Source: Mycolicibacterium smegmatis (lineage in GTDB: Bacteria > Actinomycetota > Actinomycetes > Mycobacteriales > Mycobacteriaceae). Taken from it: a stretch of 32,000 nt of DNA. The position numbers and the translations under genes were made by a program. The stretch lies in assembly GCF_001457595.1 (NCBI RefSeq), contig NZ_LN831039.1:180001-212000 (forward strand). The letters run 5' to 3'. Below the pieces are notes generated by a model. That model worked only from the letters and a program-made list of their open reading frames with translations. It was not told the origin of the DNA and did no database searches. Below, piece after piece: positions 5,746-12,681 of the stretch. The number at the start of each line of letters is the position of its first letter. The stretch's first letter is position 1.

Positions 5746-7173
5746 TCAAGGAAACGGCAGGTAGCTCCCCTTCGAGTGATCGTGGCCGGTGAACGCGGCG
5801 TCGGGATCGGGTGAGAGCGCGAGGAGGTCGCGGCAGTGCGTCTCGCAGCGTGCCCGGGCGATCGCGTGATCGTGCTCGTGGGCCTGGGGGTGCCCCTTGG
5901 CCAGATCTGCCGAATGCGCCGCGATCTTGTGAGCGATGACGGATTCGCGCAGGCGGGCTGGCCGGGGCAGGCAGCACAGCATGGATGTGCCGGCCTGGGC
6001 CGCGACGGCGGCGCCGATCACCGCGGTGGCGTGGTCGTGCTCGGGTGCGACGTCGGTGGTGAGTGGGCCGATGGTGTACGACGGGGCATTGCGGCACAAC
6101 TGCTGATGAAGGCGCACGCTCTCGGCGATCTTGTGCATCGGCACGCGGCCCGGCCCCTCGACCACCACCTGCACGCCGTGCCGGTGCGCGACCCTGGCCA
6201 GCTGACCCAGCGTGCGCAGTTCGGCGATCTGTGCGGCGTCGTTGGCGTCGGCCACAGAGCCCGGCTGTAGGCCCGCGGCCAGCGCCAGCGTGACGTCGTA
6301 CCGCGCCAGGGTCTCGCACAGCTGGTCGAAATGGGCGTACAGAAAGGATTCCGCGTTGTGCAGCAGGCACCAGTCGGCGATGACGGCCCCGCCGCGGCTG
6401 ACGATGCCGGTGATCCGGCCCGCGGCGAGCGACAGATGTTCGCGGCGCAGGCCGGCATGCACCGTCATGCAGTCGACTCCGCTCTCGGCCTGTTCGATCA
6501 CGCTGTCGCAGAACGTGTTCCAGGTCAACGCGGCGATGTCGCCGTGGACCCGGCCGAGTGCCTGGTACAGCGGCACCGTACCCACCGGCACGGGCATGTT
6601 GCGCACCATGCGGTCGCAGTCGCTGCCGGACAGGTCCGTCACGATGTCGGCGCCCCACCGGATCGCCCGCACCATGTCACCGATCACCGCGTCCGGCGGC
6701 GAGCCGATACCGGCGTTGACCTTGACGCGAAACGCCCTGCCGATGATCATCGGTTCGCTCTCGGGGTGACGGTGATTCGCCGGGATCACGGCGTGGCCCG
6801 CGGCGACTGCGTCGCGGACCACCTTGGGGCGCAGACTTTCCCGGGCGGCGACGAACGCCATCTCGCTGGTGACGACGCCCTCACGGGCGCGCTGCAACTG
6901 GGTGCCACGGTCGGTCACCACACCGGGACGCGACGGCAGACCCGTGGCCAGACGGGCGGGGGTGTCGGTTTCGGTGTAGGGCCCCGACGTGTCGTAGAGG
7001 TCGAGATGCCTTCCGCCCGACAGATGTACGCGACGGAAGGGCACGCGCCCGCCGGGTGCGCCGACGGGATCGCGGTAGCACTTGGAACTGCCCGGTATGG
7101 GGCCGGTTGGGACGCCGGTGTCCCGGTCCGGCCCTTGTGGGGCCGGGCCGGGACAGTGGGCCTCAGCGCTCAC
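5746..7173 (-). CDS. ThiC-like protein (degenerate HMP-P synthase paralog lacking the C-terminal Fe-S motif)
   Basis: Colinear similarity to ThiC along the whole length: [98 protein letters not shown]. It ends about 35 aa before where the CX2CX4C cluster motif should be. The GTG start overlaps the pntB stop (GTGA at 7173-7170). Confidence 0.65.
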
Positions 7174-8603
7174 AGCGCCTTGAGTTCCTCGATCACTTCG
7201 CCGACGGACTTCTTGGCATCCCCGAACAACATCGAGGTGTGGTTGAGGAAGAACAACGGGTTCTCGATCCCGGCGTACCCCGAGGACATCGAACGCTTGA
7301 GCACGATCACCGACTTGGACTCGTCGACGTTCAGGATGGGCATCCCGTGGATCGGGCTCGACGGGTCGTTGCGGGCGGCGGGGTTGGTGACGTCGTTGGC
7401 GCCGATCACCAGAGTGACGTCGGTGCGCGAGAATTCGCCGTTCACGTCGTCCATCTCCTTCATCGCGTCGTACGCGACGTCGGCCTCGGCGAGCAGCACG
7501 TTCATGTGTCCGGGCATGCGGCCCGCCACCGGGTGGATCGCGTACTTCACCTCGACGCCCTTGGACTCCAGGATCGCCGCCATGTCCTTCACGGCGTGCT
7601 GGGCCTGTGCGACCGCCAGGCCGTAGCCGGGCACCACGATGACCTGGTTGGCGTAGGCCATCTGGATCGCGGCATCGGCCGCCGAGGTGGACTTGGCGGT
7701 GCCCTGCTCGCCGCCGGCCACTGCGACCGTGTCGCCACCGGCGCCGAAGGACCCGAACACGATGGCCGGAATGGACCGGTTCATCGCGACCGCCATGAGG
7801 TTGGTCAGGATGGAACCGGACGCACCGACGATCATGCCCGCCACGATCATCGCGGTGTTGTTGAGCGCCAAACCTGCTGCGGCAGCTGATAATCCGGTCA
7901 AGGCGTTCAGCAGTGAGATGACCACGGGCATGTCGGCGCCGCCGATGGGGAACACCACGAACAGGCCCATGATCCCGGCGAGCACCAGCACCACCACGAT
8001 GAGCCAGAGCGGATTGCCCGTACCGGCGTGCAGGCCGATGTACGCCGCGGTGGCGATCGCGCCGAGCAGCAGAACCACGTTGGACGTCTGGAAAACCTTG
8101 GCCGAGCGGACCAGGGCCTTCTCCACGTTCTTCGGAATCGATTCCTGCAGTTTGAGATACGCGACCAGCGAGCCCCAGAACGACACCGAACCGATGATCG
8201 CGGCGAACAGCGATCCGACCACCAGCGCGACCGTCGGCGACTGATCGGGCGTGAAGTGGCCGAACCCGTCGGTCTCGATGAACTCGGCCCAGGCGATGAG
8301 CGCGACCGTGCCGCCGCCGACGCCGTTGAACAGCGCGACCAGCTGTGGCATCGCCGTCATCTTGGTCTTCTTGGCCGGCGGAACGCCGAGTACGACGCCG
8401 AGCACCAGGCCGACGACGATCAGCACCCAGTTCACGGTCGCGGTGTCGCGGACCTTGATGAGCGTTGCGACGACCGCCAGACCCATACCGGCCGCGGCGA
8501 TCAGGTTGCCGCGAACGGCGGTCTTGGGCCCGGTCAGGCCGGACAGACCCAGGATGAACAGCGAGAATGCCGCGATGTAGAGCGCGGTGACCAGATAGTT
8601 CAT
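7170..8603 (-). CDS. pntB: NAD(P) transhydrogenase subunit beta
   Basis: 477-aa protein with an N-terminal polytopic membrane domain and a C-terminal NADP(H)-binding domain ([36 protein letters not shown]). There is an ATGA overlap with pntAb. Confidence 0.95.
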
Positions 8604-8923
8604 TTGGCGGCCTCAGCTTCCCGGACTTCGGGCTTGCGGGTCTTGAACATGCCCAGCATGCGGTCGGTCACCAGGAAGCCGCCGATCACGTTGAGCGTGC
8701 CGAAGACGAGGGCGACGAACGCGATGATGCGCACGCCCCACGACGCGTCGGCGGGCAGATCACCCAGCACGATCAGGGCGCCCAGCACGACGATGCCGTG
8801 GATGGCGTTGGTGCCCGACATCAGGGGCGTGTGCAAGGTGTTGGGCACCTTGGAGATGACGGCGAATCCGACGAACCCGGCAAGCACCAGGATCGCGAGA
8901 TTGGCCAACAGTTGGTCGTACAT
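8600..8923 (-). CDS. pntAb: NAD(P) transhydrogenase subunit alpha part 2
   Basis: 107-aa membrane protein containing [18 protein letters not shown]. It lies between pntAa and pntB. Confidence 0.9.
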
Positions 8924-11237: not shown

Positions 11238-11247
11238 GGAGAAGAAA

Positions 11248-12681
11248 ATGGCGAATCGCCGCGCAAAGATCGTCTGCACGTTGGGCCCGGCCACGGCCAC
11301 GTCGTCGGTACTGACCGAACTCGTCGACGCCGGAATGGATGTCGCCCGGCTGAACTTCAGCCACAGCACCCACGCCGAGCACTCGGCGCTGTACGGCATG
11401 GTCCGGGAGATCGCCGCCCAGCGTGGCCGCGTGGTCGGCGTCCTCGCGGACCTGCAGGGGCCCAAGATCCGGCTGGGGTGTTTCGCCGACGGTCCCGTCG
11501 TATGGGCGACGGGCGAGCACGTCACGATCACCACGGAGGACTGCCCGGGTGACCACGACCGGGTCTCCACGACCTACGCGGGCCTGTCACAGGACGTGCG
11601 CGCGGGTGACCGGCTGTTGGTCGACGACGGGCGCGTGGATCTGCGCGTGGTGGCCGTCGACGGTCCCGACATCCGGTGCGAGGTCGTCGACGGCGGGCCG
11701 GTCAGCGACCACAAGGGGATATCGCTGCCCAACATCCCGGTGAGCGTTCCGCCGTTGTCGGACAAGGACATCGAGGATCTCAAGTTCGCGCTGGAGCTCG
11801 GCGCGGACATGATCGCGATGTCGTTCGTGCGCGCACCCGAGGAGGTCGAGCTCGCGCACAAGATCATGGACGAGGTGGGACGCCGGGTCCCGGTCATCGC
11901 GAAACTGGAGAAGCCTGAGGCGGTTTCGGACCTACCCGCGATCGTCGAGGCGTTCGACGGTCTCATGGTCGCGCGCGGCGATCTCGGCGTGGAGATGCCC
12001 CTGGAGCAGATCCCGCTGGTGCAGCGCCGCGCGATCGCCCTGTGCCGTCAGGCGGCCAAACCCGTGATCGTGGCGACGCAGATGCTCGATTCGATGGTGT
12101 CGGACCGCCGCCCGACACGTGCCGAGGTGTCCGACGTCGCCAACGCGGTGTTCGACAGGGCCGATGCGGTGATGCTCTCGGCCGAGACGAGTGTGGGCGC
12201 GGATCCGGCGCACGCCGTCGCCACCATGGCACGCATCGTCGTCGCCGCCGAGAGCGGTTCTGGCCGGGGCGAGACGCCCGAATCGGCGCTCGTGGAGGCC
12301 GTGAACGGCACGGACGCGGTGTTCGGTGACGCGATCGCGGTGGCGGCCTGCGAGGTGGGACGCCGGCTGGGCGCCGCGGCCCTGTGCTGCTTCACGCGCA
12401 CCGGTGACACGGCGCTGCGGTTGGCCCGGCAGCGGTCACCGCTGCCGCTGCTGGCCTTCGCGCACGACGACGAGGTGCGGGGGCGCCTGACGTTCTCGTG
12501 GGGTGTCGAGTCGGCGGTGCTGGCACCGACGGAGCTGGCCGAATCCATGCCGGGCGAGGTGTCGCGTGCGTTGCTGAGCATGGGCGCGTGCCACCCCGGC
12601 GATGTCGTGGTGGTCGTCTCCGGAAGCCGAAGCGGTGTCGCGGGGTACACCGATTCGGTCCGGGTGCTCCGTGTCGAGTGA
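11248..12681 (+). CDS. pyk: Pyruvate kinase (paralog)
   Basis: MANRRAKIVCTLGPAT..., NFSHS, DLQGPKIR, MVARGDLGVE and ATQMLDSM motifs. The ATG at 11248 is preceded by AAGGAGAAG and lies 10 nt after the panE-like stop. The ORF-track extension to 11008 overlaps the upstream gene and is rejected. Confidence 0.9.
   Translation: MANRRAKIVCTLGPATATSSVLTELVDAGMDVARLNFSHSTHAEHSALYGMVREIAAQRGRVVGVLADLQGPKIRLGCFADGPVVWATGEHVTITTEDCPGDHDRVSTTYAGLSQDVRAGDRLLVDDGRVDLRVVAVDGPDIRCEVVDGGPVSDHKGISLPNIPVSVPPLSDKDIEDLKFALELGADMIAMSFVRAPEEVELAHKIMDEVGRRVPVIAKLEKPEAVSDLPAIVEAFDGLMVARGDLGVEMPLEQIPLVQRRAIALCRQAAKPVIVATQMLDSMVSDRRPTRAEVSDVANAVFDRADAVMLSAETSVGADPAHAVATMARIVVAAESGSGRGETPESALVEAVNGTDAVFGDAIAVAACEVGRRLGAAALCCFTRTGDTALRLARQRSPLPLLAFAHDDEVRGRLTFSWGVESAVLAPTELAESMPGEVSRALLSMGACHPGDVVVVVSGSRSGVAGYTDSVRVLRVE

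Follow-up and report, generated by a model that had tools for sequence, protein, structure and literature searches.

A PanE2-type reductase beside a transhydrogenase operon and a second pyruvate kinase as the likely assimilation arm of an oxalate island in Mycolicibacterium smegmatis

Gene content of the locus

We analysed a 32,000-nt window of Mycolicibacterium smegmatis (contig NZ_LN831039.1), calling genes and families by Pfam and NCBIfam scans and comparing them with the remainder of the same complete genome (6.98 Mb). An MspA porin, an HtrA of mycobacterial type and a DUF222 protein are in keeping with a fast-growing mycobacterium. Our subject is a plus-strand gene at 10224-11237 (MSMEG_0153; ApbA and ApbA_C domains), annotated panE, whose product we consider likely to be an oxalyl-CoA reductase serving oxalate assimilation. 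The gene starts with a GTG at 10224, preceded by AAGGAGG, and ends with a TAA at 11235-11237; a GGAG then precedes the ATG (11248) of pyk2, a full-length second pyruvate kinase (11248-12681, plus strand; PK and PK_C domains; TIGR01064, 497 bits against a cut-off of 306). A first-pass annotation of this stretch had described a PanE-family gene followed 10 nt later by a pyruvate kinase, the pair being divergent from a transhydrogenase operon with a palindrome, site A, in the shared region. Each part of that description was confirmed: the stop and the ATG leave a 10-nt spacer; pntB, for the beta subunit (7170-8603; PF02233, 570 bits), pntAb, for the membrane 4TM part of the alpha subunit (8600-8923; PF12769, 111 bits), and pntAa, for the NAD(H)-binding alpha subunit (8927-10009; AlaDh_PNT_N and AlaDh_PNT_C, PF05222 and PF01262; NF006942, 390 bits), all lie on the minus strand; and site A is the operator-like dyad GCATATTGTATGC at 10115-10127 in the divergent pntAa/panE2 spacer, with one mismatch to GCATAC-N-GTATGC. 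The transhydrogenase has the three-gene alpha1/alpha2/beta layout, and all four of its Pfam families pass their cut-offs.

The genes of oxalate use follow downstream. A LysR-type regulator (13300-14226, plus strand; HTH_1 and LysR_substrate) lies upstream of oxc (14386-16119, plus; TIGR03254, 1037 bits) and frc (16116-17450, plus; TIGR03253, 710 bits), the oxalyl-CoA decarboxylation branch, which is followed by the gamma, beta and alpha subunits of an Fds-type, NAD-linked formate dehydrogenase (17484-22449, plus; 2Fe-2S_thioredx, Complex1_51K and molybdopterin domains; TIGR01591, 924 bits). Beyond these lie an OFA-type MFS transporter (23095-24438, minus; MFS_1; likely start ATG 24438; TIGR04259, 128 bits, below the cut-off), a GntR/FCD regulator (25485-26213, minus; GntR and FCD domains), a second OFA-type MFS paralogue (26414-27817, minus), frc2, a second formyl-CoA-transferase-type CoA-transferase (28317-29639, plus; TIGR03253, 636 bits against a cut-off of 504), and a third OFA-type paralogue (29853-31235, plus). 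oxc, frc, the formate dehydrogenase genes, frc2 and the OFA transporters all lie within 20 kb of the reductase gene. Identity between two of the three transporter paralogues is 58%, and that of the third to this pair about 40%; all three score below the cut-off of the oxalate:formate antiporter equivalog.

Subfamily membership of the reductase

Profile scans place the window reductase in the subfamily modelled by NF005089, on which it scores 467.6 bits against a cut-off of 223, alongside the orthologues of Methylorubrum rhodesianum (440), Cupriavidus metallidurans (534) and an Azospirillum plasmid (528), while its two PanE-family paralogues in the same genome remain under the cut-off at 88 and 131 bits. 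E. coli PanE matches NF005087 and not NF005089; on that E. coli-type equivalog, whose cut-off is 351, the window reductase reaches 49.8 bits. With the window reductase no equivalog model reaches its cut-off, and of the PanE models the broad subfamily model TIGR00745 (apbA_panE) alone passes, at 187 bits against 141. Pairwise identities agree, at 44% to the Methylorubrum orthologue, 47% to that of C. metallidurans and 50% to that of Azospirillum, whereas E. coli PanE is at 23% and the two in-genome paralogues are at 26-34%. Throughout, M. rhodesianum and M. zatmanii, with M. podarium, M. suomiense and M. subtropicum, served as proxies for PanE2 of Methylobacterium (Methylorubrum) extorquens AM1, and C. 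metallidurans as proxy for ApbA2 of Cupriavidus necator H16; the Methylorubrum and C. metallidurans orthologues are 52% identical, and the published figure for PanE2 and ApbA2 is 51% (PMC7486775).

The tree and the alignment point the same way. By maximum likelihood the window reductase joins the Methylorubrum and Cupriavidus groups over branches of at most 0.6 changes per site, against 3.8-7.2 for the branches that bear E. coli PanE and the paralogues. Relative to E. coli PanE, the window reductase carries a loop of about 24 residues inserted after Asn98 (NGVPWWYF...VDPGG), an insertion of the form NG[IV]P[WYF]WYF...VDPGG that is present in 30/30 clade members and in none of four outgroups (E. 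coli PanE, both in-genome paralogues and a second C. metallidurans paralogue). It also carries the motif HHKTSMLQD. In E. coli numbering, Asn241 is replaced by His in the window reductase and in the whole PanE2 clade, and Asn194 by Met, this position being Met or Leu in nearly all of the clade; from the E. coli ternary complex we take Asn194 and Asn241 to be pantoate-contacting residues. Lys176, Glu256, Asn98, Asn180, Asn184, Ser244 and the NADPH-selecting Arg31 are retained. This loop and residue signature was derived in the present analysis and not from the literature. A search of the PDB gave 3GHY as the best solved relative (208 bits over the full length), with E. coli PanE and M. tuberculosis Rv2573 at about 30 bits. 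The PanE homologue thus groups with PanE2/ApbA2-type proteins and not with E. coli PanE, an outcome in favour of the first-pass annotation, which had proposed this check, and judged from its sequence it is most likely a mis-annotated actinobacterial member of the PanE2/ApbA2 kind.

Paralogues and pathway genes in the same genome

Several genes of the island have second copies. The other pyk of the genome (3,369,622-3,371,040) is 57% identical to pyk2, bearing out the suspicion that the latter is a second-copy pyruvate kinase. Some 38 kb upstream of the island genes the genome has another pntAB set, with pntB at 147,420-148,760 (41% identical to the island gene) and pntAa at 149,304-150,404 (46%), and since the two sets are only 41-46% identical, the island transhydrogenase is an extra, dedicated copy. 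A second oxc, at 5.397 Mb, is 72% identical to that of the island. The PanE family counts three genes in total, the window gene included; the other two have orthologues in 0/100 and 3/100 of the congeners sampled, and neither resembles M. tuberculosis Rv2573 (PDB 4OL9) in a PDB search. All three are uncommon in the genus, and so none has the look of a housekeeping enzyme for pantoate formation. Other PanE-family genes and another pyk do exist in the genome, as the first-pass annotation had proposed to check. A fourth match to PF02558, at 2,544,022, was rejected as GpsA-like and not PanE.

The first-pass annotation had invoked a glycerate-type pathway and had seen neither a glyoxylate carboligase nor a glycerate kinase in the window. 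Both are indeed absent from the window and encoded elsewhere: gcl (1105 bits) stands with glxR, hyi and an IclR-type regulator at 5.565 Mb, and glycerate kinases are found at 2.68 Mb (GlxK-type) and 0.72 Mb (MOFRL-type). Malate synthase G is also encoded in the genome. The route that the annotation needed is thus available in this genome, and in four congeners it lies beside panE2-pyk.

Distribution and gene order

Orthologues of the reductase (82-96% identity) occur in 22 of 299 congeners, which is not the distribution of a housekeeping PanE, and the gene was found in 10 of 401 genomes sampled across the phylum, own genome included. gcl is present in 22/22 reductase-positive congeners as against 13/277 of the others, and in many of the former the two genes are some 22 kb apart on one contig. 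Full-length orthologues of pyk2 occur in 16/299 congeners, every one of them adjoining the reductase. These congener counts describe linkage and are not statistics, as kin are not independent.

We compared gene order over 20 kb around each of 16 congener copies of the reductase gene. pntB-pntAb-pntAa is divergent from the reductase in all 16, and pyk2 is directly downstream in 15. Twelve loci are of the window type and continue with LysR-oxc-frc-fds, the position of the LysR regulator being kept in all twelve. The remaining four, which we call variant B, carry on one side an OFA-type MFS gene, frc2, an MFS gene, GntR, a gene of the D-2-hydroxyacid dehydrogenase family and pntBA, and on the divergent side the reductase, pyk2, IclR and gcl-glxR-hyi, followed divergently by glxK and an HDAC-like gene, with the island oxc 12 kb away. 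These four genomes encode nearly every step from oxalate to pyruvate at a single site.

Two genes of variant B are of note in themselves. Its pyk2 (locus L173, 10597-11799; also L172, L174 and L175) encodes about 400 residues with the PK barrel and without the PK_C domain, and is therefore probably without the usual allosteric domain. Directly downstream of pntB lies a 391-residue gene of the D-isomer-specific 2-hydroxyacid dehydrogenase family (L173, 5300-6475, minus strand), which may encode either an NAD-dependent formate dehydrogenase of the single-subunit type or a reductase of glyoxylate/hydroxypyruvate.

Elsewhere in the phylum, a Streptomyces-like genome (locus L176; G394:C1:776000-795900) carries fdsGBA, the reductase, LysR, oxc and frc, and upstream of them two GntR homologues. 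The reductase there shares 81-82% identity with the mycobacterial proteins and is nested among them in the tree, a position that suggests that the island has passed between families of actinobacteria. A further reductase copy in this genome, 68% identical, adjoins different Fdh-like genes.

Outside the phylum, the association of PntAB with the reductase, which the first-pass annotation had drawn from this one locus, recurs on plasmids of a second phylum. An Azospirillum plasmid has the order HDAC-like gene, oxlT, TauE, reductase, CBS, pntAa-Ab-B, with gcl further on, and a Skermanella plasmid has GntR and then, divergently, the reductase, CBS, an HDAC-like gene and pntAB. On a Rhodobacteraceae plasmid an AMP-binding gene of the acyl-CoA synthetase type overlaps the reductase gene, and on a Phyllobacterium plasmid sucCD, frc, a gene for a TPP-binding enzyme and oxlT lie near it. 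Among 80 proteobacterial and Gemmatimonadota loci, in which 10 kb around the reductase was checked for pntAB and pyk, neither was found, and an OFA-type MFS gene stands just upstream of the reductase in 38.

A shared operator and published co-expression

The dyad GCATAC-N-GTATGC has two perfect copies in the whole genome, both within the window: GCATACCGTATGC at 24455-24467, between the OFA transporter and fdhD, and GCATACGGTATGC at 28262-28274, upstream of frc2. Allowing at most one mismatch, there are seven sites genome-wide, three of them in the window, including site A, and a looser 12-mer motif gives six matches in the window against 0.4 expected. At the same tolerance a dyad is present in the same spacer between the pnt genes and the reductase in 16/16 congener loci, the Streptomyces-like genome has one 39 nt upstream of the reductase gene, and variant-B loci have further copies before transporter and HDAC-like genes. 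The variant-B islands, the Streptomyces-like locus and the neighbourhood of the Skermanella orthologue all have homologues of the FCD-type GntR regulator. Because such a regulator accompanies the island in every lineage checked, the GntR/FCD protein of the window is the candidate that probably binds the dyad. A scan of 9900-14500 for sigma-70 promoters and intrinsic terminators gave no match, a scan that is uninformative for mycobacteria. An Rfam scan of the window also gave no match, and so no riboswitch explains the regulation.

Two published transcriptomes of M. smegmatis, in whose strain mc2155 the MSMEG block has the gene order of the window, show these genes responding together; we take the window to be that locus or a very close orthologue. 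In an mc2155 strain deleted for the small RNA (sRNA) F6, 15 genes changed, of which 14 come from the island block and rose 14-54-fold: MSMEG_0149 (ThiC), 0150-0152 (pnt), 0153 (panE), 0154 (pyk), 0156 (LysR), 0157 (oxc), 0158 (frc), 0159-0162 (fdh) and 0168 (frc) (PMC8583896). Depletion of CrsL raised MSMEG_0150, 0153-0161, 0167-0168 and 0170-0171 (bioRxiv 10.1101/2024.12.02.626298). Neither paper ties the genes to oxalate assimilation; they are discussed there as formate metabolism and stress genes (PMC8583896; bioRxiv 10.1101/2024.12.02.626298). Co-regulation of the reductase with the oxalate genes, which the first-pass annotation had put up as a possible point of failure, is thus supported both by a shared, conserved operator and by the published transcriptomes of mutant strains.

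Proposed function

We think it likely that 10224-11237 encodes an NADPH-dependent oxalyl-CoA reductase (CoA-acylating glyoxylate dehydrogenase, EC 1.2.1.17), not a ketopantoate reductase, and that it forms the assimilation arm of the oxalate island; the reading of the first-pass annotation is in this respect supported, by inference. Gene content, subfamily, synteny, co-occurrence, operator distribution and published co-expression are established by the data; the substrate, the direction of the reaction, the part played by PntAB and the identity of the regulator are inferred. PanE2 of M. extorquens converts oxalyl-CoA to glyoxylate with NADPH in vitro (PMC8411744; PMC9485241), and deletion of apbA2 in C. 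necator slowed growth on oxalate as much as did loss of the gcl-hyi-tsr glycerate pathway (PMC7486775).

The route would run as follows. Frc-type transferases would form oxalyl-CoA, one share of which Oxc would decarboxylate to formyl-CoA, Frc then freeing the formate that formate dehydrogenase would oxidise to CO2 with formation of NADH. The island PntAB would turn this formate-derived NADH into NADPH by means of the proton gradient, so that the ratio of NADPH to NADP+ would stay high, and the reductase would spend NADPH to pull the remaining oxalyl-CoA to glyoxylate. Gcl, GlxR/Hyi and a glycerate kinase, encoded elsewhere in the genome, would carry glyoxylate to phosphoglycerate, and the co-transcribed pyk2 would convert the resulting phosphoenolpyruvate (PEP) to pyruvate. 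As the reaction is reversible, the benefit of a high NADPH/NADP+ ratio could plausibly explain why pntAB is kept under the same promoter region. That region appears to share its operator with the promoters of frc2 and a transporter; given the shared dyad and its probable binding by the GntR regulator, the assimilation arm would be switched together with the oxalate genes. Reduction of oxalyl-CoA frees CoA and not formyl-CoA, so that the route calls for a further CoA donor or a ligase; succinyl-CoA acting through frc2, or a ligase, could fill this place.

A number of points weigh against this interpretation. No obvious extra CoA donor or ligase lies in the window, and gcl-glxR-hyi is 5.4 Mb from the island, with the glycerate kinases also elsewhere in the genome. 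The PanE2 reaction is reversible in vitro (PMC9485241). The co-induction described above was produced by sRNA and transcription-factor mutants of mc2155 and not by oxalate. The tested enzymes are not actinobacterial, identity to their close proxies is only 44-47%, and the node uniting the PanE2-like groups has 88/81 support and is not fully resolved from one long-branch paralogue.

Reversibility in particular opens an alternative in which the same enzyme works oxidatively, turning glyoxylate from glycolate, purines or the glyoxylate shunt into oxalyl-CoA, which Oxc, Frc and formate dehydrogenase would take to CO2 while PntAB rebalanced NADPH. The enzyme is routinely assayed as glyoxylate + CoA + NADP+ (PMC9485241), such a route has been proposed for C. 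necator on glycolate (PMC7486775), and oxc, frc and the formate dehydrogenase genes lie immediately downstream of the reductase. We nevertheless regard it as unlikely. Three OFA-type transporters and two frc genes argue for external oxalate as the substrate, and the coupling of the reductase to a pyruvate kinase, in four congeners also to gcl-glxR-hyi-glxK, is sensible only for assimilation. The reductase is moreover never found without gcl among the 299 congeners, and PntAB, whose usual direction is NADPH formation, would normally drive the cofactor the other way.

Two further alternatives concern the substrate itself. The enzyme might serve the same pathway on glyoxylate, hydroxypyruvate, tartronate semialdehyde or another 2-oxo acid: it keeps the catalytic Lys, Glu and Asn of ketopantoate reductases, its identity to the tested oxalyl-CoA reductases, judged through proxies, is below 50%, and PanE-family members of broadened 2-oxoacid specificity have been reported (bioRxiv 10.1101/2024.01.05.573888). 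The loop insertion and the His and Met/Leu substitutions are, on the other hand, common to the Methylorubrum orthologues of a tested enzyme; the overlap of the Rhodobacteraceae reductase gene with an acyl-CoA-synthetase-type gene implies a thioester substrate; and the tartronate semialdehyde step is already served by dedicated GlxR and Hyi, all of which makes this alternative improbable. Very improbable, in our judgement, is a genuine ketopantoate reductase for pantothenate (EC 1.1.1.169) placed beside pntAB and the oxalate genes by coincidence. In its favour TIGR00745 is passed and every database source names the gene 2-dehydropantoate 2-reductase, but the E. coli-type equivalog NF005087 falls far below its cut-off (49.8 against 351 bits), both pantoate-contacting Asn residues are replaced, and only 22/299 congeners have the gene though all need pantothenate synthesis. 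Coincidence also fits poorly with a synteny with pntAB, pyk and the oxalate and glycerate genes that is strict in congeners and, for pntAB, extends to a second phylum, or with co-induction alongside oxc, frc and fdh.

If oxalyl-CoA reduction is indeed the function, a gene annotated everywhere as 2-dehydropantoate 2-reductase, MSMEG_0153 included, would be reassigned to oxalate assimilation, and the island block that supplies the strongest responders in the F6-deletion and CrsL-depletion transcriptomes would read more simply as one oxalate-utilisation regulon. A private transhydrogenase suggests how assimilation of a very oxidised substrate may be paid for, by turning formate-derived NADH into NADPH, a point of pathway design with practical interest as well, since synthetic C1 and glycolate pathways make use of PanE2. 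Surveys of oxalotrophy by oxc and frc alone would miss the difference between a detoxifier and a true assimilator, and the reductase-pyk-pntAB unit could mark the latter.

Further genes and a possible mobile cassette

At the distal end of the pnt genes, a ThiC-like paralogue (5746-7173, minus strand; PF01964, 404 bits) has a start that overlaps the pntB stop, adjoins pntB in 9/12 window-type congener loci and probably closes the pnt operon; it is 59% identical to a second copy at 948 kb in the genome. It is the counterpart of MSMEG_0149, which is 27-fold up in the F6-deletion strain. Oxc requires thiamine diphosphate. Between pyk2 and the LysR gene, and divergent from the latter, lies a gene for a stand-alone, PAS-only protein of 156 residues (12723-13193, minus strand). 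A minus-strand open reading frame at 24474-25175 ('hyp233') was rejected as an antisense artefact, the true gene at this position being fdhD on the plus strand (24612-25454).

At the other end of the island an HDAC-like gene (31281-32000, plus strand; HDAC family) runs past the end of the window. A gene of this deacetylase/amidohydrolase family accompanies the reductase and pntAB in mycobacteria, on the Azospirillum and Skermanella plasmids and in metagenome-assembled genomes of Rhodoferax and Rubrivivax (beyond the window gene, L036:3296-4225, L187:11584-12516 and loci L172-L175), and has the island dyad just upstream in two congeners. On the Azospirillum plasmid, a few kb from the oxlT-reductase-pntAB block, there is also a short, 571-residue gene annotated 'pyruvate, phosphate dikinase' (L036:1546-3261), a further enzyme of PEP/pyruvate conversion close to the module.

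A broader and tentative idea, possible though doubtful, is that the PanE2-like reductase, a dedicated PntAB, the HDAC-like hydrolase and the FCD-type GntR form a mobile cassette common to Actinomycetota and Azospirillaceae plasmids, in which transhydrogenation would be mechanistically required and the HDAC-like enzyme would perhaps belong to the same chemistry. PntAB would hold the NADPH/NADP+ ratio high and thereby pull a near-equilibrium thioester reduction to glyoxylate, as a means of redox coupling peculiar to the assimilation of the most oxidised C2 substrate, and the HDAC-like enzyme might strip oxalyl groups derived from oxalyl-CoA from lysines, or hydrolyse an oxalyl-amide.

Comparison with known systems

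To our knowledge, and within the literature searched, so tightly conserved a partnership of a reductase of this kind with its own transhydrogenase and its own pyruvate kinase has not been reported. E. coli PanE (PDB 1KS9, 2OFP) has the same fold family, ApbA + ApbA_C, with Lys176, Glu256, Asn98 and Arg31 in common, but it is 23% identical, scores 31 bits in the PDB search, lacks the loop of about 24 residues and keeps Asn194 and Asn241. PDB 3GHY, a structural-genomics entry of putative function named 'ketopantoate reductase protein', shares the loop insertion (as NGVPWWFF) and the 208-bit full-length match, and differs from the PanE2 clade in having Phe in place of His in the (H)KTSMLQD motif.

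PanE2 of M. extorquens AM1 was reportedly identified as an oxalyl-CoA reductase by Schneider et al. in 2012. The window protein shares with it the NF005089 subfamily, the loop insertion and the active-site substitutions, at 44% identity to the M. rhodesianum and M. zatmanii orthologues, and shares with its relatives the linkage to oxalate genes, since many Methylobacterium and Methylorubrum loci have an OFA-type MFS gene just upstream. The serine cycle is said to take up the glyoxylate made from oxalyl-CoA in M. extorquens, whereas the genome studied here offers the Gcl glycerate pathway, and unlike the window, the 80 proteobacterial and Gemmatimonadota loci have no pntAB or pyk within 10 kb.

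A pyruvate kinase of its own is found in the P. aeruginosa cluster PA1498-PA1502 (pykF-ttuD-glxR-hyi-gcl), which likewise leads from glyoxylate to pyruvate and invites comparison with the pyk2 of variant B, but that cluster is allantoin-induced and purine-fed, and is without an oxalyl-CoA reductase, pntAB or oxalate genes (PMC12694930). Lastly, ApbA2 of C. necator H16 is a PanE2 homologue near frc-oxc (PMC7486775). It differs in being betaproteobacterial, in a host that can fall back on the Calvin cycle, and the one C. metallidurans locus inspected is without a dedicated transhydrogenase or pyruvate kinase; by genetics, oxalate carbon is fed there into the gcl-hyi-tsr glycerate pathway (PMC7486775), the same overall route that we propose for the mycobacterial island.

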